DNA of 51,559 nt, taken from positions 1 to 51,559 of the forward strand of contig JAFGST010000010.1 of the NCBI GenBank assembly GCA_016934475.1. Direction: 5' to 3'. The notes below the pieces were generated by a model. It was not told the DNA's origin and ran no database searches. It was given only the letters and a program-made list of their open reading frames with translations. The translations under genes were made by a program, and so were the position numbers. Origin of the DNA: Candidatus Aminicenantes bacterium. GTDB taxonomy: Bacteria; Acidobacteriota; Aminicenantia; UBA2199. Positions 1,975-28,880 of this stretch are shown piece by piece; the stretch's first letter is position 1; each line of letters begins with the position of its first letter.

Positions 1975-2003
1975 TTGACGGCCCCTGGGCGACGGCGTAT
2001 AAT
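1975..2003 (+). promoter_or_regulatory. sigma70-type promoter for the HD-GYP gene
   Basis: TTGACG (1975-1980), 17-bp spacer, TATAAT (1998-2003). Confidence 0.75.
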
Positions 2004-2019: not shown

Positions 2020-3237
2020 ATGATCGGCGGTTTACACAAAAACAAGGTAGCTGCGATCTTGAAGATCACCGAGGACCTCAACCAGATCAAGGACATCGAC
2101 TCCTTGCTCGACCGGGTCCTGCTGGAGGCGCGGCGCTTCTGCCGCGCCGATGCCGGGTCGATCTATTTACTGGAAAAGAACCGGAAACTGCGCATCAACT
2201 ACGTGCAGAACGACACCCTGATCCAGAAGGAGAGCGGTAAGAAATACCTGTACCAGAACCACGAGCTGGACATCAACGACAAATCCATGGCCGGCTATGC
2301 GGCCATGACCAAGAAATCACTGGTTATCGACGACGCCTACGGCCTGGACGAGCGGGTCCCTTATCGCTTCAACCGCTCCTTTGACGAGACGGCGGCGTAC
2401 CGCACCCGCTCGGTCCTGACGCTGCCGCTGATCGCCAGCCACAACCGCCTGATCGGGGTCATGCAGATCATCAATTCCCTGGACGCGAGGGGGCGGGCGG
2501 TCCCCTTCCGCGGCGAGGACGAACTGGTGGTGGCCTATTTCGCCAACCATGCCGCCGGCAGCATCGAGAAAGCGAAAATGACCCGCGAGATCATCCTGCG
2601 CATGATCGGCATCGCCGAACTGCGCGATCCGGAGGAGACCGGAGCCCACGTCAACCGGGTCGGTTCCTACTCGATCGAGATCTATTCCAAATGGGCGATG
2701 AACCACAAGGTGGACGATGCCGAAATTCGCCGGGTGCGGGACGTGCTGCGCATCGCCGCCATGCTGCACGACGTCGGCAAGGTCGCCATTTCCGACATCT
2801 TGCTGAAGAAGCACGGTCCGTTGGATGACGGCGAGTACGAGCAGATGCAGCGCCACGTTCTGTTCGGAGCGCGCCTTTTCAAGAATTCCACGTCGGACTG
2901 GGACGACATGGCGGCCGAGATCGCGCTCAACCACCATGAACGCTGGGACGGCAGCGGCTATCCCGGGAAGGTCGCGGACGTGTTTGACGACCGTTGGTGC
3001 CCCGGTCCGGGGAAACGGGGCGAGGAGATCCCCTTGTTCGCCAGGATCGTCGCCCTGTCCGACGTCTATGATGCGCTGACCTCGATGCGCGCCTACAAGG
3101 AGAGCTGGCCCGAGGAGAAGGTCCTGCAATACATCCGGGAGCAGAAAGGAAGGCAGTTCGACCCGGAGCTGGTCGACGTGTTCTTTTCGATTTACGACGT
3201 GATTCGCGCCATCCGCGGGAAGTATGCCGACCAGTAG
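2020..3237 (+). CDS. GAF + HD-GYP domain protein (putative cyclic di-nucleotide phosphodiesterase)
   Basis: N-terminal GAF (DAGSIYL...YRTRSVLTLPL...GVMQIIN), then ETGAHVNRV, LHDVGK, HHERWDGSGYP and DVYDALTS. Start moved to ATG 2020, downstream of the promoter. Confidence 0.88.
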   Translation: MIGGLHKNKVAAILKITEDLNQIKDIDSLLDRVLLEARRFCRADAGSIYLLEKNRKLRINYVQNDTLIQKESGKKYLYQNHELDINDKSMAGYAAMTKKSLVIDDAYGLDERVPYRFNRSFDETAAYRTRSVLTLPLIASHNRLIGVMQIINSLDARGRAVPFRGEDELVVAYFANHAAGSIEKAKMTREIILRMIGIAELRDPEETGAHVNRVGSYSIEIYSKWAMNHKVDDAEIRRVRDVLRIAAMLHDVGKVAISDILLKKHGPLDDGEYEQMQRHVLFGARLFKNSTSDWDDMAAEIALNHHERWDGSGYPGKVADVFDDRWCPGPGKRGEEIPLFARIVALSDVYDALTSMRAYKESWPEEKVLQYIREQKGRQFDPELVDVFFSIYDVIRAIRGKYADQ

Positions 3238-3303
3238 GACCCTGGCCCAAGGCCTGGACCGGGAAGAGGCCTGCGGCGCCGGCCGTGCCGACCGGAGACC
3301 GAC

Positions 3304-6300
3304 GTGAGCGATCCCGGAGGCGGGAGCCAAGAGCTCGGTGGCGAGATTTTTTTCTCCTGCGATCCTTCGGGAACCGCGATCGACCGCCTGATGCCCTTCA
3401 GGGTGAAACGCTTCCTGCTGGTGGCCAGCCTCTACGACTGTTTCATGCTGGAGGAAGACGGCCGCCTGCAGGACCTGCTGCTGCAGACCTACCAGAAATG
3501 GCACCTGGGCTACGTACCGCAGTTCGTCCGGGTCAGCGGCGGCGATAACGCCCTGCGGCGGATCGCCGAAGAGAAATTCGACCTGATCATCGCGCTCATG
3601 CGCCTGGGCGACATGGATCCGTTCACCTTCGGCCGGAAGGCGAAGGAGATCGATCCGCACCTGCCTGTCGTCGGGCTGGCCTACAACACCCCGGAATTGC
3701 AGCGCCTTCTCGAACTGGATGACGGTAGCGCCGTCGACCGGGTCTTCGTGTGGCAGGGGGACAGCCGGGTGCTGCTGGGGATAATCCAGTTCGTCGAGGA
3801 TCGCCGGAATGCCGACAACGACACCGAGGCCATCGGGGTGCAAAGCATCCTGCTGGTCGAGGACTCCATCGGCTTCTACTCCTCCTATCTGCCCCTGGTC
3901 TTTTCCGTCCTGCGCGAGCTGACCGAAAGCCTGCTCAAGGAGGACCTGACCTTCTCGCAGAAGCTTTTGCGTCAGAGCGCCCGCCCCCGCCTGCATCTGG
4001 CCACGACCTTCGAGGAGGCGGTCGCCGTCTTCGACCGCTTCAAGGACCATCTCCTGGGAATCATCAGCGATATCCGTTTTCCCCGGCAAGGAGTCCTGGA
4101 TCCAGAGGCCGGGAGGCGGTTTTTGCAGAAAGTCCGCTCCGAAAAGCCGCAGCTGCCCATCCTGGTGCAATCCAGCGACGACGGGGCGGAAGCGATGGCG
4201 CAAGAATCCGGAAGCCGATTTCTCTCCAAGTTATCGCCGACCCTGCTGGCCGACCTGAAGCGCATCCTGCGCTCGTTCTTCGGTTTCGGCGACCTGCTGC
4301 CGGATCCGGGAGCCGGCCAGGCCGGGTGGCGCTTCGCCAATATGGACCAGTTGTACTCCAACCTGTCCGAGCTGCCCGCGGATTCACTGAACCGGATGCT
4401 GGCCAGCGGGGAACTCGACCGCTGGCTGCGGGCCAGGACCGAGTTCTCGCTGGCCAACGCGATCAAGGATCTGCTTGTTAAGGAGGGCCTGCCCCTCGCC
4501 TCCCCGCAAGAAGCGATCAAGGAGTTGATCGCCGCTTCCCGGACCGCCAGCCGCCGCGGTTCCATTGTCCCCTACTCGCGCCATTTCCACGAGGAGTACT
4601 CGAGGTTCAGCATCATCGGCGGCGGTTCGATCGGCGGCAAGGCCCGCGGCCTGGCCTTCATGGACCGCATCCTGGCGAAATACTTCGATTCCGGGAAATT
4701 CCCAGGGACAAGCGTTTCCATTCCCCGCACCCTGGTGCTGGGCACCGACGTGTTCGATGACTTCATGAAAGAGAACGATCTGCTTCCCCAAGCCGTGGAG
4801 GATCACTCCGACGGCCACATGGCCAGCCTGTTCATCAAGGCGAACCTGCCGGGAAAGGTCGTGGGCGATCTTCGCGATTTCATCACCCATGTCACCGTGC
4901 CCCTGGCGGTCCGCTCCTCCAGCCTGTTGGAAGATTCCCTCTACCAGCCGTTCGCCGGGATTTATGCCACCAAAATGCTGCCGAACGACCAGAGCAAGAA
5001 CGACATCCGCTTCCTCAACCTGGTCAATGCCATCAAGTTCGTTTATGCCTCGACGTTTTTCCGCCAGGCCAAGGCCTACATCGCCAGCACGCCTCACCGC
5101 GTGGAGGACGAGAAAATGGCCGTCGTCATCCAGCCGGTCGTGGGGCATCTGCACCCGGACAGCTTTTATCCCGATTTTTCCGGGGTGGCCCGCTCCTACA
5201 ATTATTATCCCGTCGGTCAGGCCCGTCCCGAGGACGGGGTGGTCAATGTCGCCCTGGGCCTGGGCAAGACCATCGTCGACGGGGGCGTTTCCCTGCGCTT
5301 CACCCCGGCCTACGCCGGGGTGTTGCCGCAATTCACCTCGATCAAGGAGATGTTTCGCTTTTCCCAGCGCGATTTCTATGCCGTCGCCATGCGCCGCGCC
5401 GATTCGGTCGCCTTCCTTGACGAAGACCAGTACCTGGTCAAGCAGGGGCTGGACAAGGCGCAAAAGGACGGGGTCCTGACGTTCCTAGCCTCGACCTATT
5501 CGCCGGAGAACGACGCCGTGTACGACGGCATCAGCTTTGAGGGGCCGCGAATCATCAATTTCGCCCATATCCTGAAGAATAAGGTCTTCCCCCTGGATGC
5601 GATCACCATGCACCTGCTGCGGCTGAGCAGCGAGGCGATGAATTGCGCGGTGGAAATGGAGTTTGCCGTTACCATCGATCCGCAGAACGCGCTCCCCGCC
5701 CATTTCGCCGTTCTTCAGGTCCGCCCCCTGGTCATCCAGGACGAGCTGGTGGAGGTGGATCTGGATGAAGGGCAGATGGAGTTCGCCTTCTGCTTCAGCG
5801 ATCGCGTGCTGGGCAACGGCACCAACCGGGAGATCCGCGACATCGTGTTCGTCAAGCCGTCGTCGTTCGACGCCGTCCGCAGCCCGCAGATCGCCGGCGA
5901 AGTCGACGCGCTCAACGGCCGCCTGCGCGCGGGAAAGGCGCCCTACCTTCTCATCGGACCGGGCCGCTGGGGCAGCAGCGATCCCTGGCTGGGCATCCCG
6001 GTCAAGTGGAGCCAGATCAGCGGAGTGAAGGTCGTGGTCGAGGCGTGCCTGCCCAACATGAATGTGGATCCCTCCCAGGGATCGCACTTTTTCCAGAACA
6101 TGACCTCGCTACGCATCGGCTATTTCACGGTCGCCTTGGACCGCGAGCACGGATTCATCGATTGGCCGTGGCTGGAGGCCCTGCCCGCGGCGGAAGAAAC
6201 CGAGTTCCTGAAGCGTGTCCGCCTGCCGGAGCCTGTCACGGTGGTAATCGACGGCCGCAAAAGCAGGGGGATCATCCTGAGGCCGGGAGCTCCGGTTGGG

Positions 6301-6312
6301 GGAAATGGCTGA
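3304..6312 (+). CDS. Receiver-domain-fused PEP/pyruvate-binding (PPDK/PEP synthase N-terminal ATP-grasp) domain protein
   Basis: Two REC-like segments (FLLVASLYD; ILLVEDS...IISDIRFP), then GGKARGL, AVRSSSLLED, FAGIYAT, MEFAV, LQVRP and a C-terminal GPGRWGS...SQGSHFF domain. No pyruvate-binding TIM barrel. Confidence 0.8.
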   Translation: MSDPGGGSQELGGEIFFSCDPSGTAIDRLMPFRVKRFLLVASLYDCFMLEEDGRLQDLLLQTYQKWHLGYVPQFVRVSGGDNALRRIAEEKFDLIIALMRLGDMDPFTFGRKAKEIDPHLPVVGLAYNTPELQRLLELDDGSAVDRVFVWQGDSRVLLGIIQFVEDRRNADNDTEAIGVQSILLVEDSIGFYSSYLPLVFSVLRELTESLLKEDLTFSQKLLRQSARPRLHLATTFEEAVAVFDRFKDHLLGIISDIRFPRQGVLDPEAGRRFLQKVRSEKPQLPILVQSSDDGAEAMAQESGSRFLSKLSPTLLADLKRILRSFFGFGDLLPDPGAGQAGWRFANMDQLYSNLSELPADSLNRMLASGELDRWLRARTEFSLANAIKDLLVKEGLPLASPQEAIKELIAASRTASRRGSIVPYSRHFHEEYSRFSIIGGGSIGGKARGLAFMDRILAKYFDSGKFPGTSVSIPRTLVLGTDVFDDFMKENDLLPQAVEDHSDGHMASLFIKANLPGKVVGDLRDFITHVTVPLAVRSSSLLEDSLYQPFAGIYATKMLPNDQSKNDIRFLNLVNAIKFVYASTFFRQAKAYIASTPHRVEDEKMAVVIQPVVGHLHPDSFYPDFSGVARSYNYYPVGQARPEDGVVNVALGLGKTIVDGGVSLRFTPAYAGVLPQFTSIKEMFRFSQRDFYAVAMRRADSVAFLDEDQYLVKQGLDKAQKDGVLTFLASTYSPENDAVYDGISFEGPRIINFAHILKNKVFPLDAITMHLLRLSSEAMNCAVEMEFAVTIDPQNALPAHFAVLQVRPLVIQDELVEVDLDEGQMEFAFCFSDRVLGNGTNREIRDIVFVKPSSFDAVRSPQIAGEVDALNGRLRAGKAPYLLIGPGRWGSSDPWLGIPVKWSQISGVKVVVEACLPNMNVDPSQGSHFFQNMTSLRIGYFTVALDREHGFIDWPWLEALPAAEETEFLKRVRLPEPVTVVIDGRKSRGIILRPGAPVGGNG

Positions 6313-7201
6313 GCTGCCGGGAGGCGACATCCCTCCCGCCGAAGGACCGTTCCTATTCGCCAGTGACCTGCACGGGCGCGAGGAGCGCTACCTGAAGCTG
6401 TTCTCACTCGTCCAGGCCAGGCGGCCCAAGGCTGTTTTCCTGGGCGGCGACCTTCTGCCCTCAGGCACGCTGCTGTTCGGCAACAGCCCGGTCTGCGGAG
6501 ATTTCCTGGAAGATTTCTTGCTGCCGGGGCTGAGTCGTCTGCGCGAGAGCCTGCACGACGACTATCCGCGGCTGTTTCTGATCCTGGGCAACGACGATCC
6601 GCGCCAGGCCGAGGAAAGCTTCCTGCGCCGGGAAGCGCAGGGGCTGTGGAGCTATGTTCACGGGCGCAAGTCCCCATTGGGGCGATACGCCGTCTACGGC
6701 TACGCCTGCGTACCGCCCACGCCGTTTATGCTGAAGGACTGGGAGCGCTACGACGTTTCGCGCTTTGTCGATCCGGGTGCCGTCCCCCCCGAGGAGGGGC
6801 GATACAGTGTCGTCGTTCCCGAGGAGGAACGGGGCTTTCCCACCATCCAGGACGACTTGGTGCGGCTCGCGGGCGCTGATCCCATGGAGCGGGCCATTTT
6901 CCTGTTCCATTCCCCCCCGTACCGTACGGCGCTCGACCGGGCGGCCCTGGACGGCCGCCAGGTGGATGGCGCCCCCCTCGACGTGCACGTGGGCAGCATC
7001 GCAATCAAGCGATTCATCGAGGAGCGCCAGCCCCGGGTCACCCTGCACGGCCATGTCCACGAGTCGGCGCGCCTGACCGGCTCCTGGCAAGAAACGATCG
7101 GCCGGACCCATTGCTTCTCCGCGGCCCACTCCGGCCCCGAGCTGGCCGTGGTCTCGTTCGACCCGGCGAATCCTGGGGAGGCAGCCCGGTGCTTGCTATG
7201 A
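6305..7201 (+). CDS. Calcineurin-like metallophosphoesterase (Icc-related)
   Basis: SDLHG, GGDL, GNDD, FHSPP and HGHVHE motifs. Start overlaps the upstream stop codon. Confidence 0.85.
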   Translation: MAELPGGDIPPAEGPFLFASDLHGREERYLKLFSLVQARRPKAVFLGGDLLPSGTLLFGNSPVCGDFLEDFLLPGLSRLRESLHDDYPRLFLILGNDDPRQAEESFLRREAQGLWSYVHGRKSPLGRYAVYGYACVPPTPFMLKDWERYDVSRFVDPGAVPPEEGRYSVVVPEEERGFPTIQDDLVRLAGADPMERAIFLFHSPPYRTALDRAALDGRQVDGAPLDVHVGSIAIKRFIEERQPRVTLHGHVHESARLTGSWQETIGRTHCFSAAHSGPELAVVSFDPANPGEAARCLL

Positions 7202-7211
7202 CCGCGGCAAC

Positions 7212-10200
7212 TTATTGGCTTTTAAGGGCCAGGGGGCGGGCGGCGTTGGTCGCGGCGTCGATCTTGACGGCGAAGCTGGTCTTCTTGGCGATATCCTCGT
7301 CGGTCAGCAGGTGATAGTCGAGCAGCCCCCCGGATTTGTAGCCGGTGCGCGAGTAGTTGATCTCGGCCAGGCACAGGCTCCAGCCCTCGAGCCAGAGAAC
7401 AAGTTCCTGCTTCTGCCGCTCGCTCCCTTGGAAGTGGATCAGGAGGTCGATGTCGCTGCCAGGACCGGCCGTGGCGTTCTTCGTCGAGCCGAAGACGTAC
7501 ATGGCCTTGACGCCGAAGCGACCCGGATCAAGCTGGCCGGCGATTCGCTCGGCCATGCGCAGCCGCCAGCCCCAATGGTCGTCGCTGGCCGTCTCGGAGA
7601 CCTCGACCCGTTCCCGCTCGGCACTCGCCTGCGAGTCGGGCGTGGCCAAAAAGCCCAGAGCCTCGCCTAGGTCGGCGTTCATCAGCACCCGCAGCACCCT
7701 GCCGCTGGCGGCGCGCGGAACCTCGATGACGCGGATGGTGTCGGCGAGGGCCGCCGACTCGGGCAGGATGTCGGGGAAGTAGTTTTGGGCATCCAGCAGG
7801 AAACGCTCGTTGAAGATGATACCCGGGTCGTCGGGGTAGAGGGGCAGGTAGCGGATCGATGATTCGACCAGGTCCTGGAAAAAATGGGTGCCGAACGACA
7901 GCTCCGGGACGTAGTTGCCCTTCTTGCGGGCGATCTCGATGAGGGCGGCGGTGTTGTTGAAATCCGAGTAGGTTACGGGCACGCCGAGCTTGATGTCCCC
8001 GCGGCTGCCCCAGCGCCCCGGCCCCATGAGGATGAACCGGCGCTTGGGCAGGAGCTTGTTGAGCTTGCCGACGGCCTGGCCGACCTCGATCATCTGCTCA
8101 CTGCGCTCGAGCAGGGAATAGTTCTCCGGGTCCACGTAGACAATGTGGGTGATGTCGGGAAGCTTGCCGTTCGAGATGTAGCGGTTGGCGGTGAAAATGA
8201 TCCGGTCCTCGGCGATGTCCTTGGGGATGAGGCTGGCCACGTTGCCCGCGGTCGAGCTTTGCGGCCGGCACTGGAGAAGGTAGAGCTGGCGGCCGTCGTG
8301 GGCGAACTCGATGTCCACCGGGGTGCTCATCTTCTCCTGGAGCGTCTTCAGCATGCACTGCAGCTGCTTGACGAAGGGGGTGCGCGAGATCCAGCCCTCG
8401 AAGGTGACGAACAGATTCGCCTTGCTGAAGTCGAGGCCGAGGGCCGAGGGGGAATAGATGTGGTCGTCCTCGTAGACGGAGACGATATTCTCGATGCCGG
8501 GATATTGGGAGCCGCACTCTGTCAGCAGGGCGGTGATCTCCATGGACTCGAACGAGCAGGTCTTCAGGTTGATGACGTCGATGCGCCGCGGCGAGTAGCG
8601 CATTGTCTCGTCGGCGGTGACGTTGACGCGCAGGTTGGGGATGCCCGGCGAGATCAGGATCGGGTAATCGTCGCTGACGCGGTCCACGGCGCGGGTGCCC
8701 AGGCCGGGGACGAGGCGGGCCAGCCCGTCCTCGCGCTTGATGCGCGGCGACCAGCGGAACTCGTTGTTGCTGAAGGCGACGCCGGCGAAGGCGGGGAGAT
8801 AGTAGTCGCCCACTTTTTGCCCGACCACTTCCTGGATCATGATGCCCATCTCCTCATGGAAGTCCAGCAGCCCGCGCTCGGCGCGGTATTCGATGGGGTC
8901 GGGGCCGAAGATGGAGGCGTAGACCTCGGCGATGGCGTCGGTCAGCGCATCCAGCCGCTCCTGTTTCGTTCCCTGGTTGGCCAGGAACAGACTCTTGTAT
9001 TTGCCGGAAAAGGCCATGCCCATGCGGTCTTCCAGTAGGCTCGAGCTGCGCACGATCAGCGGCTTGTTGCCCAGATCGTCGAGGGCCATAGACAGCCCCT
9101 TGATGATCTCGATGGGGAAATGGGCGTTTTTCAGCAGCTGGACGACATTATGGTACTCGAGGCGGATCTGGTCGATTTCCTTGTATTTCTGTTCGTTCAC
9201 TTCCTCGAGGTTGTTGTAGCTCAGGAAGTTCAGGATGGCGTCGGTGGTGATGTACCAGGTCTTGGGGAACTTGAGCTCGCACAGGACCTCGGAGTGGTCG
9301 CCCGGCTTGGTCAGGATTTTCTGCGCCAGGAACAGCCCGGCGCTCTTTCCTCCCAGGCGGCCGTAGCCGTTGGCGGGATAAATGATGCGCTGCACGAGGT
9401 CGTAAAAATGGCGCACCTCGATGTGGTTCTTGGCGATGTTGATGAAATCGAGCTGGTCGGAGAAGAAGCGGCGGATGAGCGAGACGCGAAGCCCCTTCTC
9501 CATGGGGGGCGAGAGCTCATACGTGCCGCCGGAGATGTAGTGGTAATGGGTGATGGCGTTGATGACGTCGACCAGGGGCATGTCGATGTTGTTGATCGCC
9601 CGGCTCAGGAAGCTGGCCTTGTCCTCCTGGATCCACTTCTGGATGCGACCCAGAATATCCGAGTCGCTCAGGTAGCGCGCCGCGATGCGGAACGTCTTGT
9701 CGCTGAGCTCCAGGAGCTCCAGCTGCGATTTCTTCTGGCTGGGGCGGTTCATGTCGTCGCTCATCTCGGTCTGGGCGGCGCCCTGGTCCTTGCTCAAAGA
9801 CTTCAAAAGTTCCTTGGCCTCCATAACGCCGTTCCAGAAGAGGTGGTAGACCATCTTGCGACCCAGGTGGATGTAGAGATTCTGGTCGGTGCGGCGCAGC
9901 AGGTCGATGACGACCATCCATTCCTTCTTGATCTTGTCGCTGAGGTCCTTCTGCGCCGTCTCCCATTCGCGCGAGACCTGCTCCAGCTTGAAATGCAGGA
10001 CGGTGCGGCCGATGCGCTCGGCGATGGTCTGCAGCAGTTTTTGCTCGTCCTTGAGGAAATAGCTGTTTTCCGTCTGTGGGACGTCACGGGTGTAGGAAAC
10101 CTCGATGAAGCCGATGACCTTCTCCTCCTCCTTGATGTCGACGCGCTGCACGCGCGTCGACGGTGTAAATCCCGGGCTCTGGTAGGTGTGGTCCTCGTGG

Positions 10201-10394
10201 ACGATCCGCACCTGGCAGATGTTGGGGAATTGGTAGCCGCCGGGGATGACCTGGAGCAGCTGGGTGAAGATCTCGGACAAAGGCAGGTTGGTCCTGGTGA
10301 GAAGCTCCTCGACCTGGTACAGGCAGTTCAGTTCCTTGGCCCGCTCGCGCATGTCGTGGAGCAGCTTGTCGATCGGGTTTTGCGAATTGTTCAT
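7212..10394 (-). CDS. GAF-like + PEP/pyruvate-binding ATP-grasp + C-terminal nucleotidyltransferase fusion protein
   Basis: N-terminal ERAKELNCLY domain; LGGKSAGL, IVRSSSLLED, FSGKYKS, DIEFA, LQCRP, GPGRWGS and SFGTHFF; C-terminal YVFGS...SDIDL pol-beta-type NTase motif. Confidence 0.82.
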   Translation of the reverse strand: MNNSQNPIDKLLHDMRERAKELNCLYQVEELLTRTNLPLSEIFTQLLQVIPGGYQFPNICQVRIVHEDHTYQSPGFTPSTRVQRVDIKEEEKVIGFIEVSYTRDVPQTENSYFLKDEQKLLQTIAERIGRTVLHFKLEQVSREWETAQKDLSDKIKKEWMVVIDLLRRTDQNLYIHLGRKMVYHLFWNGVMEAKELLKSLSKDQGAAQTEMSDDMNRPSQKKSQLELLELSDKTFRIAARYLSDSDILGRIQKWIQEDKASFLSRAINNIDMPLVDVINAITHYHYISGGTYELSPPMEKGLRVSLIRRFFSDQLDFINIAKNHIEVRHFYDLVQRIIYPANGYGRLGGKSAGLFLAQKILTKPGDHSEVLCELKFPKTWYITTDAILNFLSYNNLEEVNEQKYKEIDQIRLEYHNVVQLLKNAHFPIEIIKGLSMALDDLGNKPLIVRSSSLLEDRMGMAFSGKYKSLFLANQGTKQERLDALTDAIAEVYASIFGPDPIEYRAERGLLDFHEEMGIMIQEVVGQKVGDYYLPAFAGVAFSNNEFRWSPRIKREDGLARLVPGLGTRAVDRVSDDYPILISPGIPNLRVNVTADETMRYSPRRIDVINLKTCSFESMEITALLTECGSQYPGIENIVSVYEDDHIYSPSALGLDFSKANLFVTFEGWISRTPFVKQLQCMLKTLQEKMSTPVDIEFAHDGRQLYLLQCRPQSSTAGNVASLIPKDIAEDRIIFTANRYISNGKLPDITHIVYVDPENYSLLERSEQMIEVGQAVGKLNKLLPKRRFILMGPGRWGSRGDIKLGVPVTYSDFNNTAALIEIARKKGNYVPELSFGTHFFQDLVESSIRYLPLYPDDPGIIFNERFLLDAQNYFPDILPESAALADTIRVIEVPRAASGRVLRVLMNADLGEALGFLATPDSQASAERERVEVSETASDDHWGWRLRMAERIAGQLDPGRFGVKAMYVFGSTKNATAGPGSDIDLLIHFQGSERQKQELVLWLEGWSLCLAEINYSRTGYKSGGLLDYHLLTDEDIAKKTSFAVKIDAATNAARPLALKSQ

Positions 10395-10420
10395 CGGTGC
10401 CTCCCCCGGGGACAGGAAAG

Positions 10421-10443
10421 GGGGGGCGCCGGCGGCGCCCCCC
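10421..10443 (-). terminator. GC-rich hairpin just after the gdh stop (partial terminator or mRNA stabiliser)
   Basis: GGGGGGCGCC-GGC-GGCGCCCCCC perfect 10-bp stem, followed on the minus strand by only a short CTTTCC tract. Confidence 0.45.
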
Positions 10444-10455
10444 GGGATGTTCGGG

Positions 10456-11742
10456 TTACACCCAGCCCCTCAGCCTGCAGGCTTCGGCGACGCGGGCGAC
10501 GGCGATCATGTAAGCGGCGTCGCGCATGAAGGCCTTTTTCTGCTTGGCCAGCCCGTACACGGCGTGGAAAGCCGCGGTCATGACGTTGTCGAGCTTGCTC
10601 AGGACCTCTTCCTTGGTCCAGAAGTAGTTCATGTTGCACTGGACCTGCTCGAAATAGCTGCAGGTGACTCCGCCGGCATTGGCCAAAAAGTCGGGGATGA
10701 CGAAGATATTCTTTTTCTTGAACACTTCGTCGGCCTCGGGAGTGGTCGGGCCGTTGGCGCCCTCGGCGACCACCTTCATCTTGGCGGAGATCTTCTGCAC
10801 CGTCTCGGCGTTGATCTGGTTTTCCAGCGCCGCCGGCACCAGGATGTCGACATCCTGTCCGATCCAGGCCTCGGCGTCGGCCACTTCGTAGCCCAGGCCT
10901 TTGGCCTTGGCCTTGTCGATGCCGCCGAACTTGTCGGTGATGCCCAGCAGCTCGTCGAGGTCGATGCCGCTCTTCTTGATGAAGGTGTAGGACTTGTTGT
11001 CTTTCTGGTCCCAGCAGGAGACGCATACGGCCTTGCCGCCGTACTCCTGGTATAGGCGGACGGCATACTGCGAGACGTTGCCGAAGCCCTGGAAAGCGGC
11101 GCTCGTGTTCTTGATCTCGATGCCCAGCTCGCTCAGGGCCTCGCGCAGGGTGTAGATGACGCCGAAGCCCGTGGCCTCGGTGCGCCCCAGCGAGCCCCCC
11201 ATGCCGACCGGCTTGCCGGTGATGAAGCCGGGATACTTGGCACCGGTGAGCTTCTCGTACTCGTCCATCATCCAGATCATGTGCTGGGCGTTGGTCATGA
11301 CGTCGGGGGCCGGGACGTCCTGCAGCGGGCCGACGTTGCGCACCACCTGGCGCACCCAGCCGCGGCAGATCTGCTCCTGTTCGCGCATGGAGAGATTGTG
11401 CGGGTCGCAGATTACGCCGCCCTTGCCGCCGCCCAGCGGGATGTCGACGACGGCGCATTTCCAGGTCATCCAGGTGGCCAGGGCCTTCACCGTGTCGATG
11501 GTCTCCTGGGGGTGGAAGCGGATGCCGCCCTTGCAAGGGCCGCGCGAATCGTTGTGTTGCACCCGGAATCCCTGGAACACCTTCACGGTGCCGTCGTCCA
11601 TCTTGACCGGAATGGAGAAATGGTACTCGCGCAGCGGGTTGCGCAGCAGATCGCGCGTCCCCGGATCCAGGCCCAGTTGCTCGGCGACGCCGTCGAATTG
11701 CTGCTGCGCCATCTTGAACGCGTTGAACGATTTATCAGCCAT
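10456..11742 (-). CDS. gdh: Glutamate dehydrogenase (Glu/Leu/Phe/Val dehydrogenase family)
   Basis: RGPCKGGIRFHP, MTWKCA, GGGKGG, VPAPDV, GRTEATGFG, QGFGNV, EGANGP and PDFLANAGGV motifs. AAGGAGGT RBS before ATG 11742. Confidence 0.93.
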   Translation of the reverse strand: MADKSFNAFKMAQQQFDGVAEQLGLDPGTRDLLRNPLREYHFSIPVKMDDGTVKVFQGFRVQHNDSRGPCKGGIRFHPQETIDTVKALATWMTWKCAVVDIPLGGGKGGVICDPHNLSMREQEQICRGWVRQVVRNVGPLQDVPAPDVMTNAQHMIWMMDEYEKLTGAKYPGFITGKPVGMGGSLGRTEATGFGVIYTLREALSELGIEIKNTSAAFQGFGNVSQYAVRLYQEYGGKAVCVSCWDQKDNKSYTFIKKSGIDLDELLGITDKFGGIDKAKAKGLGYEVADAEAWIGQDVDILVPAALENQINAETVQKISAKMKVVAEGANGPTTPEADEVFKKKNIFVIPDFLANAGGVTCSYFEQVQCNMNYFWTKEEVLSKLDNVMTAAFHAVYGLAKQKKAFMRDAAYMIAVARVAEACRLRGWV

Positions 11743-11777: not shown

Positions 11778-11807
11778 ATTTTACCACGCCGTCGGTCCTT
11801 TTGTAAA
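11778..11807 (-). promoter_or_regulatory. sigma70-type promoter of gdh
   Basis: Minus strand: TTACAA/TTTACA -35 and extended -10 TG-G-TAAAAT (11778-11786). Confidence 0.55.
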
Positions 11808-11858: not shown

Positions 11859-14429
<2,571 letters not shown>

Positions 14430-21634: not shown

Positions 21635-23002
21635 TCAAGGCAGCAGCTGGTACTTTTTGATCTTGGACAGCAGGTTGACCCGCGATATCCCAAGAATCTT
21701 CGCCGCCTGGCTCTTGTTCCCCTTGGTGTGGCCAAGGATCCGCCGGATGTGCTCTTTCTCGATCTCGCTCAGTGATTTCAGGGCCTGGCCGCTGTCGGAC
21801 GTCTCCTGGATGCGGGAGTTCTCCAGGAAGTAGTGCGGGAGCGATTTCTTGTGCAGCTCGCTCCCGCTTTCGATGATGACGGCGCTGTTGATGATGTTCA
21901 TCAGCTCGCGGACATTTCCGGGGAAATCGTATTGTTTCAGCAGGCGCATGGCGCCCTCGGAGAGCTTCTGGATGGCTTTCTCGTTCTGCTCGTTGTACCT
22001 TTCCAGGAAGTACTGGCACAGCAGCGGGATGTCGCCCTTGCGCTCGCGCAGCGGCGGAAGGTAGACGGAGCTCATGTTCAAGCGATAAAAGAGGTCCTTG
22101 CGGAAATTCCCCTTCTTCATCTCGCTGAGAAGGTCCTTGTTGGTGGCGGCGATGATGCGCACGTCCACTTTCTGGTTCTTGGTCGATCCCAGCCGGAAAA
22201 ATTCCCCCTCCTGGAGAACCCGCAGCAGCTTCACCTGGATGGGAAGGGCCAGTTCGCCGATCTCGTCGAGGAACAATGTGCCCTTGTCGGCTTCTTCCAG
22301 GAAGCCTTTCTTGGCCGCGCTGGCACCGGTGAAGGCGCCCTTGTCGTGGCCGAAGAACTCGGAGGCGAACAGCTCGTTGGCGAAAGTTCCGGCGTTGACG
22401 GCGACGAAATGCTCGTCGCGGCGCCGGCTGATGCGGTGGATGGCCTTGGCGATCAACTCCTTGCCCGTTCCGCTTTCTCCCCAGATCAGGATGCTGTTGT
22501 CGGGCTGGGCCATCTTCTCGACCATCTGGAACAGCTTGATCATATCGTCGTCCTGGGTGATGATCTCCTGGAAGGCCTCCTTGAATTTCAGCTGGTCCAG
22601 GGATACGGCGGCTTCGGAGGCGGTCGCCCCCCGGGCGCCGCGGGTTTCCAGCACCGAGGTGATGATCTTCAGGAGCTGGTCGTTGTCGACGGGCTTGGTC
22701 AGGTAGTCGAAGGCGCCGAGCTTCATCGCCGAGACGGCCAGTTCCACGTCCTCCACGCCGGTGAGCACGATGGTCTCGATGTCGATGTTCCTGTCCTTGA
22801 TGAACTTCAGGATGTCCAGGCCGGTCACTTCGGGCATGTCCATGTCCAGCAGCAGGAGGTCGTAGCTGTTCTTGCGCAATTCCTGGAGGGCCTTGCTGCT
22901 GTTGGCCAGCACGGTGACTTCGTAGGCCCCGGTCTGCAGCAGCATGATGTTCAGGTAGTTCAGTACCGCCTGGTCGTCGTCGATGGCCAAGATCTTCTTC
23001 AT
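21635..23002 (-). CDS. sigma54-dependent response regulator (NtrC/AtoC-type REC-AAA+-Fis HTH)
   Basis: IDDD and LLDMDMP receiver motifs, GESGTGKE, GAFTGA, FLDEIGE, FRKDLFYRL, PGNVREL, C-terminal GNKSQAAKILGISR. Confidence 0.95.
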   Translation of the reverse strand: MKKILAIDDDQAVLNYLNIMLLQTGAYEVTVLANSSKALQELRKNSYDLLLLDMDMPEVTGLDILKFIKDRNIDIETIVLTGVEDVELAVSAMKLGAFDYLTKPVDNDQLLKIITSVLETRGARGATASEAAVSLDQLKFKEAFQEIITQDDDMIKLFQMVEKMAQPDNSILIWGESGTGKELIAKAIHRISRRRDEHFVAVNAGTFANELFASEFFGHDKGAFTGASAAKKGFLEEADKGTLFLDEIGELALPIQVKLLRVLQEGEFFRLGSTKNQKVDVRIIAATNKDLLSEMKKGNFRKDLFYRLNMSSVYLPPLRERKGDIPLLCQYFLERYNEQNEKAIQKLSEGAMRLLKQYDFPGNVRELMNIINSAVIIESGSELHKKSLPHYFLENSRIQETSDSGQALKSLSEIEKEHIRRILGHTKGNKSQAAKILGISRVNLLSKIKKYQLLP

Positions 23003-25107
23003 GGCGTTGCCCTCGGCGCGAGCGGAATGTGGATCGAGAACGTCGTGCCCGCCCCAACCTTGCTGTCCACCGCGATCCGTCCCTTGTGGTCCTTGATGAT
23101 CCCGTAGGCGATCGACAGTCCCAGCCCGGTGCCGCCCTGGTTCCTCTTGGTGGTGAAGAAAGGATCGAAGATCTGCTTGAGCGTCTTTTCGTCGATGCCG
23201 CTGCCGTTATCACGGATCTGAAGCAGGTTTTCGTTTTCCTTTTCCAGGTACTCGGTGCGGACGGCGATCGAGCCCATCTTTTTCTCGATGGCCTGCGAGG
23301 CGTTGATCAGGATGTTGACCAGAACCTGCTCCAGGCGCTGGAAGTTGCCCTTGATTCTCGGGAGGCGCTCGTCCAGCTCCAGCGTGACTTTGGCCTTGCG
23401 CCCGATCTGGTTGGAGACCAGGCGCAGGCAGCTATGGATGATCTCGTTGAGGTCCACCTCGTCGTTCAGCACGCCGTCGTCCCGCTTGGCGAACTTGCGC
23501 AGGCCGTCGACGATGGCCTTGATGCGGTTGGCTCCCTGGGCCATGTCTTCCAGCAGGATCAAAATGTTGCTGCGGAAAACGTCGTAGTTCAGGCGGGCGA
23601 TCTGCAGGTTCCCCTTCTTGCTGGAGTGTTCGTCAAGAATGGGCAGGATGTCCTTCATCGCCTCCTGGATGATCGACACGTTGCCGCGGATGAAGGTGTT
23701 GGGATTGTTGATCTCGTGGGCGATGCCCGAGACCAGCTGGCCCAGCGAGGCCAGCTTGTCGGTCTGCATCAGCTGCAGCTCCATGTTTTTCTGCTTGGTG
23801 ATCAGGCGCGAGAATTCCAGCACGCCATCCACCTCTCCCCGCTCGTCGAAGATCGGGTAGGCCTGCAGCAGGTAGTAATCGTCGGCGATCTTTTCCTCCA
23901 GGGTGATGGATTTTCTCTGCTGGAAGGCCATGGCTCCCGGGCAGGGCTGGCAGGGCTGGGAGCGGCCGAAGATCTTGGCGTAGCATTTGCCGTCGTGATT
24001 GCCCTCCTTGCGATTGGCCATCTTGACGTTGAAGTCGCGATCGATCATGACCACCTGGTCGGTGATGGCGTCGAAGAGCGTCTGCAGCTTGTTCCAGCTC
24101 TCCTTCAGCTTCTCGGTGAGCGAAACGAGTTCCTCGTTTTTGTGGATCAGCAGGTCCTTTTGCATTTCCAGGTCGGCCGTCCTGGCCTGGACGATCTTTT
24201 CCAGGTTTTCGTTTTGCTTGATCAGCTCCTGCTCCAGTTCCTTGCGCAGGCGGATGTCCTTGTAGACCTCCTCGATGCAGCGCCGGCCGTCGAAGTCGAC
24301 GAGAATGAACGAGCCGATGACCGGGCATTGCTTGCCCCGGGAATCGATCAGGCTCATCTCCATTCCCTCCAGGAATCCCTTTTCCTTCAGCTTTTTGAAA
24401 ATAAAGGGGCGGATGAGCGGGATGTTGGCGTACAGCTTGTCCTTGACGAAGTTCAGGTGGACCGATCCGTCCTCGGGGTAGTGCAGCATGCGATAGAAGG
24501 CGCGGTTGGCCTTGAGGATGTCGCCGTTCAGCTCGGAGATGACGATGCCGTCGGGCGCGTTCTCGAAAAGGTCCTCGAAGCGCTTCGTCGACTTTTCCAG
24601 CTCCCGGGTCTTGTCCTTGACCATTTCCTTCAACTTGCCGACGTACTTTTGCAGCTCCAGTTGCAGTTCGTGCTTCTCGACCGCCTTGGAGATCATGCGG
24701 CCGATCTCCCCGATGAGCTTCTTTTCCTCCTCGAGGAACTCGCCTTTCTCCCGGTACGCGACCTGGGCGTATCCCCTGGGAAGCCCGTTGACCACGATGT
24801 CGGCCCGGATGGCGCTGACGATGTCGGCGCAGTGGTTCTTGCCGCCGGGATAGCGGGTTCGATCCAGCATAATGCAGCCGCGCGCCTTCTCCGGATACTG
24901 GAATCCCTTTACCAGGTGCGAAGCGGACTGCTCCAGGACCTGTTTGAGCCCCTTGCCCGCCTCGATCTGGGAACTGATGATATAGAGGCACTCCAGTTCC
25001 TTGATCCGCTCCTTGAGGTCGTGCTCGAGCTTGCGGGCGCACTCGATGCATTCCTTCCGCTGGGGCTGCTTCTGCACCCTGGCCGTCGTCTTGCTGCCTT
25101 TTGCCAC
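22999..25107 (-). CDS. Cytoplasmic PAS-domain sensor histidine kinase
   Basis: N-terminal ERIKELECLY domain, two PAS-like segments, H-box GIAHEINNP, NILINA, DNGSG, FDPFFTTK and GTGLGL. No TM helix. Confidence 0.92.
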   Translation of the reverse strand: MAKGSKTTARVQKQPQRKECIECARKLEHDLKERIKELECLYIISSQIEAGKGLKQVLEQSASHLVKGFQYPEKARGCIMLDRTRYPGGKNHCADIVSAIRADIVVNGLPRGYAQVAYREKGEFLEEEKKLIGEIGRMISKAVEKHELQLELQKYVGKLKEMVKDKTRELEKSTKRFEDLFENAPDGIVISELNGDILKANRAFYRMLHYPEDGSVHLNFVKDKLYANIPLIRPFIFKKLKEKGFLEGMEMSLIDSRGKQCPVIGSFILVDFDGRRCIEEVYKDIRLRKELEQELIKQNENLEKIVQARTADLEMQKDLLIHKNEELVSLTEKLKESWNKLQTLFDAITDQVVMIDRDFNVKMANRKEGNHDGKCYAKIFGRSQPCQPCPGAMAFQQRKSITLEEKIADDYYLLQAYPIFDERGEVDGVLEFSRLITKQKNMELQLMQTDKLASLGQLVSGIAHEINNPNTFIRGNVSIIQEAMKDILPILDEHSSKKGNLQIARLNYDVFRSNILILLEDMAQGANRIKAIVDGLRKFAKRDDGVLNDEVDLNEIIHSCLRLVSNQIGRKAKVTLELDERLPRIKGNFQRLEQVLVNILINASQAIEKKMGSIAVRTEYLEKENENLLQIRDNGSGIDEKTLKQIFDPFFTTKRNQGGTGLGLSIAYGIIKDHKGRIAVDSKVGAGTTFSIHIPLAPRATP

Positions 25108-25122
25108 GGGGATATTATAGCA
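25108..25122 (-). promoter_or_regulatory. Internal extended -10 promoter for the histidine kinase (probably leaderless)
   Basis: Minus strand TG-C-TATAAT-ATCCCC-GTG. The -10 box contains the upstream gene's TAA stop. Confidence 0.6.
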
Positions 25123-28100
25123 CCAATTTGCTTTTGATTTTTGTTCTCAGGTAGTTTTCGCTGGAGAGTAGCGGCTGTTTCTCGCGGCTGTGGATGGCCA
25201 GGTCGATGGCCAGGGGGAGAAAGTGGGCCTTGCCTCCCGCAGTGGCGAACGTTTCCCTGAAGAGCCGACCTCCCCAAAAACCGCCGTCGGCGACCTCTCG
25301 GTAATAGGGATTGGCCTCGGTGATCTCCCGGAAGACTGCGGCGGCATCGATGTCCTGAAGGGGCTGGCCGGTAAGCTGGGCCAGCCTGCCGATGACTTCC
25401 AGGTTGGTCATGCCGCTGCGCGCCGGCAGGAGCGCGGCGCAGCGCTGGACGCGCCGGTCGCAGGCGGTGTAGGTGCCGTCGCTTTCCAGTGGGGTCGACA
25501 TGGGCAGGATGACATCGGCCTCGGCGGCGCTGGCCGTCAGAAAAAAGTCGGCCACGAGCTTGAATTCCACCGCGGACAGCAGGCTCCCGGCTCCACTGGC
25601 GGCCAGGGGATCCTCGCCGAAGACCAAAAGCGCCTTCACCTCGCCCTTCTTCAACCTGGCGGCCAGGTCGACCGGCGTAAATATCCTCTCCAGGGGGGCC
25701 TTCCACATGGCGCTCAAGTGGGCAATCCCGTCCTGGCCGGGGCGGACGAAACCGGGCAGCCAGCGGGGATCACATCCCATGTCGAGGAGTCCCTGGGCAT
25801 TGGCGTAGTCGCGGATGAGCAGCAGGCCGTTTCCGGGCTTGCCGGATTTTCCCAGCAGCAGCATCAGGTTCCCCAGGGCCTTCAGCTCGTCGCGCGATCG
25901 TTCCAGGTATTCGTCCATGCCGTAGACAATCACCAGGTTGGGCGACCCGGCCAGCAGCTCGACGACGCGCTCGAATTTCTCCTTTTCCATGGCCGTTTTG
26001 GCCAGGGCTTGCTTGGGGCCCAGCTTGACGATCGAGGCCTGGAATTGCGCGAAGTCTTCGCAGCGGCGCTCGATGAACTCCCGGTCGATGACCCCCTTCT
26101 TGATCAGGGCGCCGGCGATGCCCGCCAACAGGGAGGTGTTGCTGCCCCGCTTGGGATCGAGCCACAGGTCGGCGATTTTGCTGAGAGTGTTTTCCGATGA
26201 GCTGATGGAGACCAGGCGGGCCCCCCTCTTGATCGCCTCCTTGATCTTCAGTTCGGCCACCAGGTTGTTCTCGGTCAGCTCGGCGTTCACGACCAGGATG
26301 ACATCGGCCTTGGCCAGATCGTCCATCGTCGTTGTGGAGGTCGTGAACCCGAGCATATCGTCGAGGGCGTCGAGTTCGTGTCCGTCAAACATGTTGCTGA
26401 AGCTGCCGATCATATTGGTTTGCCAGCCGGAGCGCACCCATTTCTGTAGCAGGTACAGCTCCTCGTTGGCCATGCGCGGGGAGGCGAATACGGCCACGGA
26501 CTCGGTCCCATGCGCCTGAATGACGGCCTGGATCCTGGCGGCGGCGAGGGTGAGCGCCTCGTCCCAGGACGCTTCCCGAAGTCCGTTCCCCTTCTTGACC
26601 CGGGGCGCGAGCAGGCGTCCTTTGTCCAGCATGTAGCGGTAGCCGAAGCGTCCTTTGTGGCAAAGGTAGCCCTTGTTGTGCGAGTCGCCGTTGACCGCCG
26701 CGACGGCAAAGGTGTCCCGATCGAAGATCTTGTACTGCAGCACGCAGCCGACGGAGCAGAAGTGACAAATCGAATCGGCTCTCCGGGCGGCCCAGGGTCC
26801 GGGTTTGGCGAACGGCAGGCTCTCGGCGATGGCGCCGGTGGGACAGGCGGCGATGCAATTGCCGCAGGAGATGCAGTTGGTTTCCAGAAGCTTTTTCTCC
26901 ATGGAGGGACGCACCACCGATTTGAAGCCGCGGTAGACGAAGCCCAGCGCCGAGACTTGGAGGACCTCCGAACAAGTGCGGACGCAACGGCCGCAGGCGA
27001 TGCATTTGTTCGGATCCAGCGTGATGAAGGGATGGCCCTTGTCGACCTTGTATTTTCTCACTTCACCGACGAATTTGGTGATGTCCACGCCAAAATCCAC
27101 GGCGTGCTTGCGCAGAGCGCAGTCGAAATACGCCGAGCAGCCGCATTCCAGGCAGCGGCCGGCCTCGTTTTGCGCCTGCTGCGGGGTGAAGCCCCTTTCT
27201 ACCTCCTCGAAGGTCTTGCCTCTGGATGCGGCCGGCAGTTCCGGCATTTTTTCCTTCGCGATCTTCGCGAAGTCGGCGAAATCGCTGTCGGGGATATCGC
27301 CGAAGGCCTCCTTGCGGCTGATGAATTCAGCCGTGCGGGCCTCGGCCTTGCCGTTGCGGACGTATTGATCGATGGACTCGGCGGCGCGCCTGCCCTGGGC
27401 GATGGCGTCAATGGCCACGGCCGGCCCGGTGGCCATGTCGCCGCCGACGAACACCCCTGGGATCGACGTTGCGAAAGTGCCTTCGTCGTAGACGGGGGTA
27501 TTATGACGGGTCGACTGCAGCCGCGGGTCCTTTTGCAGGCCGCACAGGTCGACGTCCTGGCCGATGGCCGAGATGACGAAGTCACAGGGCAGGCGGTACT
27601 CGGAATTCGCCAGCGGCACGGGGCTGCGCCGGCCGCTGGCATCGGGCTCTCCCAGCTCCATGCGGATGCAGGTCAGTGCCTGCAGCCGGCCGTTCTCCTG
27701 CAGCAGCTCGGTCGGTGCCGAAAGCTGGACCAGTTCGACGCCCTCCTCGAGGGCGGCCTCGATCTCCATGGAATGAGCCGGCATCTCCTTGCGCGTGCGG
27801 CGGTAGAGCAGCGTCACCTTGTCGGCTCCGAGCCTGAGGGCGGTGCGGGCGGCATCGATGGCCGTGTTGCCTCCACCGACCACGACGACCGTGCCGTAGA
27901 TCTCGGGCTTCTTTTCCCCCTGGAGCTGCCAGAGGAAATCGATGCCGCCCAGGACCCCGGTGATCTGGTCTTCGCCCGCCAGACGCATGCCCTTTGCCTT
28001 CTGGGCCCCGAAGGCAAGGAAAATGGAGTCATAGCCCTGCTTTTTGAGATCGTCGAGAGTGAAGTCCCGTCCCAGGGCGCTGCTGGTCTTCAGCGTTACT

Positions 28101-28867: not shown

Positions 28868-28880
28868 GGAGCTTTCCTCT

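Follow-up and report, generated by a model that had tools for sequence, protein, structure and literature searches.

A dikinase-like ATP-grasp protein co-inherited with one clade of bacterial glutamate dehydrogenases: a candidate dedicated regulator

Glutamate dehydrogenase (GDH) joins carbon metabolism to nitrogen metabolism and is a main catabolic enzyme in many peptide-living anaerobic and soil bacteria. Dedicated covalent control is textbook knowledge for glutamine synthetase; to our knowledge, none is known for bacterial GDH. Here we describe a locus at positions 2020-11742 of a 51,559-nucleotide stretch of DNA from a Candidatus Aminicenantes bacterium (contig JAFGST010000010.1, hereafter the window), in which a GDH gene is accompanied by the genes of a 1060-aa ATP-grasp protein (A), of its 1002-aa paralogue (B) and of a metallophosphoesterase. 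In the genomes sampled, A is inherited nearly one-to-one with the GDH clade linked to it (GDH-L), and very probably A is a functional partner dedicated to GDH; how it would act on the enzyme is discussed below with more reserve. A full-text search of the literature, outside of which lie subscription journals, old scans and supplements, found no publication on this gene cluster.

A scan for homologues of A, with one genome per species, returned at least 577 places, the best 80 of which were fetched with 10-kb flanks; the calling of open reading frames (ORFs) in these flanks was crude and the locus counts therefore rest on tblastn. Across these 80 loci A is 52-61% identical over 1060 aa and is spread over more than 10 phyla, the carriers including Acidobacteriota, Ignavibacteria, Calditrichota, Planctomycetota, Zixibacteria, Spirochaetota, Bacillota, Myxococcota and others, with Melioribacter, Ignavibacterium and acidobacterial lineages named in the locus records. 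Among the best 120 matches of a protein search, full-length homologues are 57-86% identical and come from Aminicenantes, Ignavibacteriae, Bacteroidota, Calditrichia, Thermoanaerobaculia, Spirochaetota, Kiritimatiellia and Zixibacteria. A GDH of at least 50% identity over at least 300 aa occurs in 72 of the 80 loci, and an ELFV dehydrogenase match at E<=1e-10 in 75; in 69 loci the GDH gene precedes A on the same strand, in 66 of them within 2.2 kb. When the count is restricted to loci whose upstream flank reaches 3.3 kb or more, GDH is present in 65 of 67, one of the two exceptions having a GDH of the nicotinamide adenine dinucleotide phosphate (NADP) type immediately downstream. An enrichment of this kind beside gdh had been predicted in a preliminary description of the locus made from the sequence alone. 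Clustering of the flank ORFs in the 80 loci gave three conserved families, namely the grasp proteins (79), GDH (65) and the phosphoesterase (36), the next family being found in 8 loci, and the commonest order is gdh, a short form of B, A, with the phosphoesterase converging. The HD-GYP gene that opens the plus-strand string of the window, counted as a member of the system in the same description, was ruled out as such together with the flanking ClpB and TatD genes (1, 0 and 0 of the 80 loci, respectively): the arrangement of the window including HD-GYP is kept in 3/3 loci of the same genus, and HD-GYP is a genus-specific accessory. Other members of the family or class have either gdh, long B and phosphoesterase in a row or the usual order.

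The link is also seen at the level of whole genomes. In a sample of the phylum of the window, 301 genomes were searched for A (E<=1e-50) and for GDH-L (E<=1e-150), which were found in 82 and 71 genomes, respectively; the two occur together in 70 genomes and are both absent from 218, and GDH-L stands alone in 1 and A alone in 12. In other words, 70 of the 71 genomes with GDH-L have A, and 218 of the 219 without A lack GDH-L. The 12 genomes with A only comprise six with a minimal or very diverged A, four with a 42-43%-identical A, one that is 73% complete and one with a match at a contig edge; in the two loci fetched from the group with 42-43% identity, the adjacent GDH is 50-52% identical. The genomes without A that were checked (5/5) have only GDHs 36-46% identical to GDH-L. 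The co-inheritance of A and GDH-L is thus nearly one-to-one.

By both of its ELFV domains and by its nearest solved relatives, GDH-L belongs to the hexameric class of ~420-450 aa: every one of the 38 matches listed at E<=1e-60 is a GDH, among them 1euz (8e-125), RocG/GudB and the Thermus enzyme. It is considered a separate clade because it scores 479 against a cut-off of 750 for the GdhA_Arch equivalog. The 71 linked copies have a mean column identity of 80%, and linked GDHs from other phyla are 54-79% identical to that of the window. Compared with six unlinked and five NADP-type GDHs, GDH-L has 21 private invariant positions and a private insertion around W244-Y252 (residues 244-256) in the dinucleotide-binding domain, adjoining the dinucleotide-binding strand, in which W244 and Y252 are invariant; in each of the 11 GDHs used for comparison, position 244 is a gap and position 252 is Gly. 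To judge from these alignments, this loop is a candidate for a regulated or modified segment. Long B and some A-like forms are also found beside an NADP-type GdhA (NF006929, 738-768 bits vs 536), in 11 loci out of the 80 as well as in further ones, and this enzyme is only ~33% identical to GDH-L. The neighbours being GDHs of two classes, the association is therefore with glutamate dehydrogenases as such.

Shorter forms of A in the phylum sample allow the link to be assigned to a part of the protein. These forms lack the C-terminal nucleotidyltransferase (~16-920), or also the N-terminal GAF-like part (~150-920), or are minimal (~296-915). In 20 variant loci, hand-picked from one phylum, an adjacent GDH of at least 50% identity is present in 18, of which 15 at 69% or more, and the two loci without GDH are minimal forms that are also without the helical region preceding the ATP-grasp domain. 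When only nucleotidyltransferase-less forms with adequate flanks are considered, the adjacent GDH of at least 50% identity is found in 17 of 19 loci (14 of these at 69% or more). The helical region is present in all GDH-linked forms of A and absent from the two unlinked minimal ones. The GDH link therefore belongs to a core made of the helical region, the ATP-grasp domain and the domain that follows it (the C-domain), and not to the nucleotidyltransferase or to the GAF-like part. Furthermore, since forms without the nucleotidyltransferase keep their GDH, the tie between A and GDH cannot rest on nucleotidylation of the enzyme.

The nucleotidyltransferase belongs instead to a second layer of the system. 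Of 108 loci examined, 94 had adequate flanks, 75 with and 19 without this domain; the phosphoesterase is found in 46/75 of the former vs 0/19 of the latter, and B in 54/75 vs 3/19. Within the loci with nucleotidyltransferase, the phosphoesterase accompanies 42 of the 54 that have B and 4 of the 21 that do not. B, the phosphoesterase and the nucleotidyltransferase thus co-occur as an accessory set, and the correlation of the nucleotidyltransferase with B hints that this domain acts on B, or on A itself. A reading of the cluster as anti-phage defence was dropped, PADLOC having given only weak matches, from the nucleotidyltransferase and the phosphoesterase.

As regards the anatomy of A (domain limits in Table 1), residues 7-135 are modelled as helix-helix-sheet-helix, and the top Foldseek rows for this segment are nearly all GAF domains (best 4g3k, E 6e-3, prob 1.0, target TM 0.63); the Pfam search of the A N-terminus was without any match, and the GAF-like assignment appears valid at the level of the fold alone. 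In the helical region an N-x-P motif (N216, P218; 9741-9749) lies within an acidic loop predicted to be disordered and is invariant; N216 and W254 do not vary across 71 sequences, some of which lack the nucleotidyltransferase or the GAF-like part. Predictions of a complex between this region (residues 136-345) and GDH, with 71-row alignments for each and without controls, scored 0.00 in both runs. The ATP-grasp motifs VRSSSLLED (residue 448), DIEFA and LLQCRPQ (residue 706) are invariant in 12 homologues, and correspond to the VRSS..ED and E-F-A...L-Q-x-R-P motifs that presumably bind phosphate and Mg in pyruvate phosphate dikinase (PPDK); in a sequence search of A against solved structures, the sole match was to an ATP-binding domain, 5hv6 (E 1.3e-4). 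At the C-terminus, the NTP_transf_2 match in the whole protein falls near residues 957-994 and the G-S...D-x-D motif is intact, with G969, S970, D981 and D983 invariant in 12 homologues and GSDIDLL starting at residue 979. Among the Pfam and NCBIfam results for the window proteins there was no match to GlnE or GlnD models.

The C-domain stands directly after the ATP-grasp domain, as does the His domain in PPDK and in phosphoenolpyruvate (PEP) synthase. In the domains of the best 150 family representatives His837 of A is conserved in 153 of 154, and R794, E820, S833 and G835 in 154/154; this histidine follows G-[TS] at the beginning of a helix, a setting that recalls the G-G-x-T-S-H consensus shown by 17 genuine swivel domains taken from related genomes. 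The AlphaFold2 model, obtained from a 141-row alignment (79 A orthologues and 62 B-type paralogues), has a predicted local distance difference test (pLDDT) of 91.4 and a predicted template-modelling score (pTM) of 0.90. An exhaustive VIA-align search with this model placed phospho-carrier domains among the top rows: the PPDK phosphoryl-carrier domain 2fm4 (best, Z 5.6, 115 aligned), the swivel region of rifampin phosphotransferase (5hv1 758-867, Z 5.2), the C-terminal domain of pyruvate kinase (2e28, Z 5.0), the His domain of maize PPDK (1vbg 388-518, Z 4.8) and Enzyme I (Z 4.4-4.5), where Z < 8 can mean a common arrangement. Many other rows belong to what we take to be the 'swivelling beta/beta/alpha' fold class. 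The family is of moderate size, with 2455 representative clusters at E<=1e-3 out of 1.84 billion, and in the ESM Atlas the domain retrieved only clusters that were unnamed or called 'putative PEP synthase'. A divergent phospho-His swivel domain is the best reading of the C-domain, albeit a weak one.

A and B had been described as paralogous ATP-grasp proteins without the pyruvate-binding barrel, probably annotated by mistake as PEP synthase, and on each of these points the description agrees with our results. The two proteins are 27% identical over 549 aa (E 5e-35), the aligned part comprising the ATP-grasp and the C-domain, with the ATP-grasp motifs intact and GPGRWGS and G[TS]HFFQ present in both (in B, GPGRWGS at 5956-5976 and GSHFFQ at 6079-6096); B scores 114.5 bits for PPDK_N vs a cut-off of 27, and ends at the C-domain where A continues into the nucleotidyltransferase. 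The PEP/pyruvate-binding barrel (PF02896) gave no Pfam match in A or B, and with PEP-synthase equivalogs A scores 56.5 bits vs 598 (NF005057) and 54.9 vs 739.75 (TIGR01418), B 45.6 vs 883. The signalling input domains also claimed for both proteins stand in part. The GAF-like fold of A is seen by Foldseek and B has marginal receivers, with a Response_reg score that is 28.4 bits for the whole protein, below the cut-off of 30.2, and 31.5 bits, in two stretches, for its N-terminal part alone; there is no Pfam match to GAF, and the first receiver-like domain, which aligns to RstA/BfmR receivers (E 5.5e-3) with Leu in place of the acceptor Asp, is probably a pseudo-receiver.

In other loci, a short B of ~580 aa, with no receiver domains, sits between gdh and A; residues ~420-993 of long B are 43-50% identical to it, and B is immediately upstream of A in 53 of the 80 loci. 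The genome of the window is ~80% complete, and a short B elsewhere in it is therefore possible. Natural fusions of B and A are also found (~1630 aa, with 1631-aa proteins among them; P0046, P0048, P0050, P0051, P0055 and others, one from an Ignavibacteriae-named bin), in which residues 31-574 are 50% identical to residues 446-993 of B and the remainder aligns with A; given these fusions, A and B very probably act as a pair. In the loci L139 (G264:C4) and L138 (G121:C10), one genome has a short B (gdh-B-A) plus a long B in a converging string of NADP-GdhA, long B and phosphoesterase, and in the other gdh, long B and phosphoesterase converge on A; long B is therefore a third paralogue in some genomes and not just a decorated B. 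A further locus of 18.7 kb (L087, G019:C4) contains five ELFV dehydrogenase genes around long B and a nucleotidyltransferase-less A, as well as two tandem small ORFs (13239-13970) resembling the GAF-like domain of A alone. In the window itself, the N-terminal ~140 residues of a PAS-PAS-HisKA-HATPase kinase (22999-25107, minus strand) resemble the GAF-like domain of A (26% to A 10-147, E 3.7e-6), and an NtrC-type regulator with receiver, sigma-54 AAA and HTH_8 domains (21635-23002, minus strand) comes directly after it; this kinase may respond to the ligand that A senses, or may feed the receiver-like domains of B.

The metal ligands of the phosphoesterase are invariant in 36 orthologues (D21, H23, G48, G95-N96-D97-D98, H202, H248, H250 and H252, with D49 nearly so), and its motif III is GNDD, that of canonical metallophosphoesterases being presumably GNH[DE]. 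As a single sequence it had no match among solved structures; as a profile its nearest solved relatives, two weak matches, are aq_1956 (2yvt, 2.3e-5) and YfcE (1su1, 6.8e-3), the latter of which we take to be a phosphodiesterase.

In the window the system is laid out as two converging gene strings, HD-GYP, B and phosphoesterase on the plus strand and gdh and A on the minus strand, flanked by TatD and the 3' end of gyrA on one side and by ClpB on the other (Table 1). All of the genes named in the preliminary description are present, at the positions it gave or a few bases away, and the translational coupling it proposed for the phosphoesterase is in keeping with the ATG of this gene, which overlaps the TGA of B in the shared string ATGGCTGA. 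The start of gdh was put at the ATG at 11742 because the resulting 428 aa is the length in homologues. The ends of the phosphoesterase and A genes, which converge, are 10 bp apart (7201-7212), a spacing into which separate terminators do not fit. The intergenic gap between gdh and A is 61 nt and contains a GC-rich hairpin, a possible partial terminator or attenuator, so that co-transcription of gdh and A may be partial; partial termination here could yield high expression of gdh and low expression of A. Elsewhere in the window, a 1279-aa fusion of 2Fe-2S, GltD-like (Fer4_20 and Pyr_redox_2), Nqo3-like ferredoxin and molybdopterin oxidoreductase domains (25115-28954, minus strand) adjoins a NuoF-like flavin mononucleotide/Fe-S protein (28881-30647, minus strand); by their domains, the two look like a large NAD(P)H-linked complex of the formate-dehydrogenase or hydrogenase type.

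Table 1. Features of the locus, with positions in the window, strand and supporting observation.
Feature	Position	Strand	Observation
Promoter-like site before the HD-GYP/B/phosphoesterase string	1975..2003	+	TTGACG-17-TATAAT, 11/12 matches; consensus match only
GAF + HD-GYP (HD_5) gene	2020..3237	+	ATG 2020; Pfam HD_5 9.2e-23, HD 7e-18, GAF 2e-14
Paralogue B, long form, 1002 aa	3304..6312	+	PPDK_N 7.9e-33
Metallophosphoesterase	6305..7201	+	Metallophos 4.2e-10, 40.8 bits vs cut-off 21.5
Protein A, 1060 aa	7212..10394	-	PPDK_N 2.5e-61, NTP_transf_2 1.1e-7
A residues 940-1060, Pol-beta-type nucleotidyltransferase	7215..7577	-	NTP_transf_2 35.9 bits vs cut-off 21; Polbeta 29.8 bits
A residues 726-925, C-domain common to A and B	7620..8219	-	GPGRWGS 8004-8024; His837 codon 7884-7886
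A residues 346-720, PPDK-type ATP-grasp	8235..9359	-	PF01326, 208.2 bits vs cut-off 27
A residues 136-335, helical region	9390..9989	-	AlphaFold2 model
A residues 7-135, GAF-like sensor fold	9990..10376	-	AlphaFold2 pLDDT ~90; Foldseek
GC-rich hairpin in the gdh-A gap	10421..10443	-	perfect 10 GC pairs, loop 3, weak T tail; pattern match only
gdh, 428 aa	10456..11742	-	both ELFV domains (PF00208 235.9 bits, PF02812 186.5 bits)
Promoter-like site before gdh	11778..11807	-	TTTACA-18-TAAAAT with TG, 10/12 matches; consensus match only

A regulatory role, as the preliminary description had suggested, is in keeping with the sensor domains, the second paralogue, the phosphoesterase and the terminator-like hairpin after gdh, and the reading that we favour, tentatively and at somewhat short of even confidence, is that of a GDH-L-dedicated, ATP-driven phospho-His regulator analogous to the mycobacterial protein VadK. 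Its core would consist of GDH-L and the helical region, ATP-grasp and C-domain of A. A, and B likewise, would bind ATP in the grasp domain and phosphorylate the histidine of its own C-domain (His837 in A), just as PPDK, PEP synthase, rifampin phosphotransferase and VadK phosphorylate their swivel His; since there is no pyruvate-binding barrel, the acceptor would be supplied in trans. The phosphoryl group would be passed to GDH-L, or the phospho-state would decide whether A binds and modulates the GDH hexamer. The GAF-like domain of A would make this control metabolite-dependent, and the receiver-like domains of B would make it signal-dependent. The nucleotidyltransferase, B and the phosphoesterase may form a second cycle, of nucleotidylation and de-nucleotidylation or of phosphorylation and dephosphorylation, tuning the A-B pair, in which a mark on B or A would be put on by the nucleotidyltransferase and taken off by the phosphoesterase.

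A number of results weigh against this phospho-His regulator. The excised C-domain has no Pfam match even at E<=10, and no PEP-utilizers (PF00391) domain was seen in it; a Foldseek search of its model against the PDB gave 0 matches at E<=0.001, the best rows being unrelated, and the Z of 4.4-5.6 obtained with VIA-align is in the common range, with an unrelated DRTGG domain tying for rank 1. In hhalign, the comparison of the C-domain profile with the 17 genuine swivel domains was negative (probability 0.67%, 10 columns), the aligned part being only the terminal V-x-x-D-G-x-x-G hairpin. Moreover, 29 of the 75 nucleotidyltransferase loci have no phosphoesterase nearby, a terminator-like hairpin parts gdh from A in the window, and Fisher P values overstate the link, for the co-occurrence because the genomes are related and for the variant loci because of the way they were chosen.

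The main rival is that the product is a small molecule, A and B being a dikinase or signal synthase which, via His837 or directly, would phosphorylate or nucleotidylate a ligand for which the C-domain, being enlarged, would offer a site (GPGRWGS loop, R794, E820). GDH would be fed or controlled allosterically by what they make, perhaps a nucleotide signal or a metabolite related to glutamate or 2-oxoglutarate, and the phosphoesterase would break this product down. We regard this as unlikely but as deserving serious attention. The C-domain has ~200 aa vs the ~145 columns of the swivel alignment, with extra invariant residues, and, being ~80 residues larger than a swivel domain, it might bind a small acceptor, which again counts against the phospho-His regulator. 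The nearest solved sequences of the phosphoesterase, aq_1956 and YfcE, are not protein phosphatases, and in the genus of the window a second-messenger phosphodiesterase gene, HD-GYP, heads the operon, although it does so in 1 of 80 loci. The characterised non-PPDK members of the ATP-grasp family that were consulted all act on small molecules, namely, as reported, rifampin phosphotransferase and HpeHI (PMC12167813). On the other hand, no biosynthetic or transport genes are conserved nearby, the conserved flank families being three only, and the near one-to-one co-inheritance and the clade-specific changes on the GDH surface fit a protein partner better.

Three other explanations were weighed. 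The first, a GlnE/GlnD-like nucleotidylation of GDH, takes up a parallel drawn in the preliminary description: the nucleotidyltransferase of A would AMPylate or uridylylate GDH, the phosphoesterase would remove the nucleotide and the ATP-grasp domain would be auxiliary. This agrees with the intact G-S...D-x-D motif, with the co-occurrence of nucleotidyltransferase and phosphoesterase, with the relationship of the latter to aq_1956 and YfcE, and with the AMPylation of mammalian GLUD1 by SelO, which lowers its activity (PMC12375108); we consider it improbable, and abandon it as the conserved core, given that the nucleotidyltransferase-less loci keep their adjacent GDH and are without phosphoesterase, and that the nucleotidyltransferase travels with B and the phosphoesterase, which points to B or A as its substrate. 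Low probability is also given to the possibility that A is an activase or a stable subunit, binding the GDH-L hexamer non-covalently as an energy- or metabolite-sensing subunit or assembly factor, with no group transfer. The tight co-inheritance and slow evolution of both partners would suit it, as would the N-x-P of the disordered loop, found only in GDH-linked forms, and the working model of VadK, which is also binding-based (PMC13400623); near-invariant His, Arg and Glu residues in the C-domain and intact grasp motifs in both paralogues argue instead for catalysis, and a hydrolase of the eraser type belongs to the set. Finally, an ordinary PEP synthase or PPDK, as some source annotations have it, is extremely improbable. 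A and B do share with these enzymes the ATP-grasp family (PF01326) and a following domain with G-[TS]-H, and several sources label the homologues 'pyruvate, water dikinase'. Unlike them, they have no barrel and no Pfam swivel domain, carry sensor and nucleotidyltransferase domains and score about one-tenth of the equivalog cut-offs; together with the finding that other contigs of the genome hold three further genes whose PEP-utilizers domains are genuine, the absent barrel and these scores led us to rule this identity out.

Among known systems, VadK (Rv1127c) of M. tuberculosis is the closest in kind to the phospho-His regulator that we favour. VadK is a truncated PPDK that autophosphorylates His422, as shown by mass spectrometry and an H422A mutant, and that pulls down methylcitrate synthase and dehydratase and tunes the flux of the methylcitrate cycle, reportedly without serving to make PEP (PMC13400623). 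The likeness is one of architecture, a PPDK-type ATP-binding domain and a His domain without barrel, and it holds if the C-domain is a swivel; moreover, VadK is reported to interact with the enzymes it regulates, where here there is genomic linkage alone (72/80 loci). VadK differs in being a plain truncation of ~50 kDa with a recognisable PPDK His domain, whereas the C-domain has no Pfam or profile swivel match, and the present system has GAF-like, receiver-like and nucleotidyltransferase domains, an A/B pair that is sometimes fused, a phosphoesterase and, as the linked enzyme, GDH.

Reuse of dikinase modules for acceptors other than pyruvate has parallels. Rifampin phosphotransferase is reportedly a dikinase module acting on a small molecule, and it provides both a top row for the C-domain (5hv1 758-867, Z 5.2) and, with 5hv6, the sole solved sequence match to A. 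HpeHI is presented as a two-component dikinase with the ATP-grasp and swivel parts split over two proteins (PMC12167813). Both are reported to reuse an ATP-grasp and swivel His module for a non-pyruvate acceptor; unlike A and B, they have a small-molecule-binding domain of their own and serve resistance or catabolism, where here no such domain is present and the conserved neighbour is an enzyme gene.

Control of a nitrogen-node enzyme has a classical counterpart. GlnE and GlnD control glutamine synthetase and PII, and resemble the present system in a putative writer/eraser cycle with a Pol-beta-type nucleotidyltransferase and in signal input domains; they differ in that here there is no family match, the nucleotidyltransferase is dispensable for the GDH linkage and the eraser is a separate metallophosphoesterase. 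Going by its title alone, a 1996 publication by Baggio and Morrison is said to report trans-acting gene(s) downstream of gdhA affecting GDH activity in Bacteroides thetaiotaomicron, and may be relevant. SelO AMPylation of GLUD1 is a precedent for the switching of a GDH by covalent attachment of a nucleotide, although SelO is an unrelated writer with a pseudokinase fold, the site is on the animal-specific antenna and there is no genomic linkage (PMC12375108).

In the sources, homologues of A are named 'hypothetical', 'PEP/pyruvate-binding domain-containing', 'nucleotidyltransferase domain-containing' or 'pyruvate, water dikinase', and the present results would correct the common annotation as 'PEP/pyruvate-binding domain protein' or 'pyruvate, water dikinase'. 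If the phospho-His reading is right, the system would be of a known kind, a dedicated enzyme-modifying or enzyme-binding regulator derived from a dikinase module, like VadK, and would be new in its unrecognised domain, its two-layer architecture and its target; it would represent a second case, independent of VadK, of a dikinase ATP-grasp/His module turned regulator, with the C-domain as a domain without a Pfam entry. A broader picture, which we put forward as a rather doubtful possibility, is that of a widespread, undescribed post-translational switch for GDH, in which the A/B pair, with a new type of phospho-His carrier, would phosphorylate or in some other way covalently gate GDH-L under metabolite (GAF) and two-component input, a nucleotidyltransferase/phosphodiesterase cycle would set the state of A-B and, with both NAD- and NADP-type GDH genes in the cluster, the system would set the direction of flux at the glutamate/2-oxoglutarate/ammonium node. 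In any case, the co-inheritance of a very large, slowly evolving protein with one clade of GDH defines a protein pair that is testable from cultured carriers.

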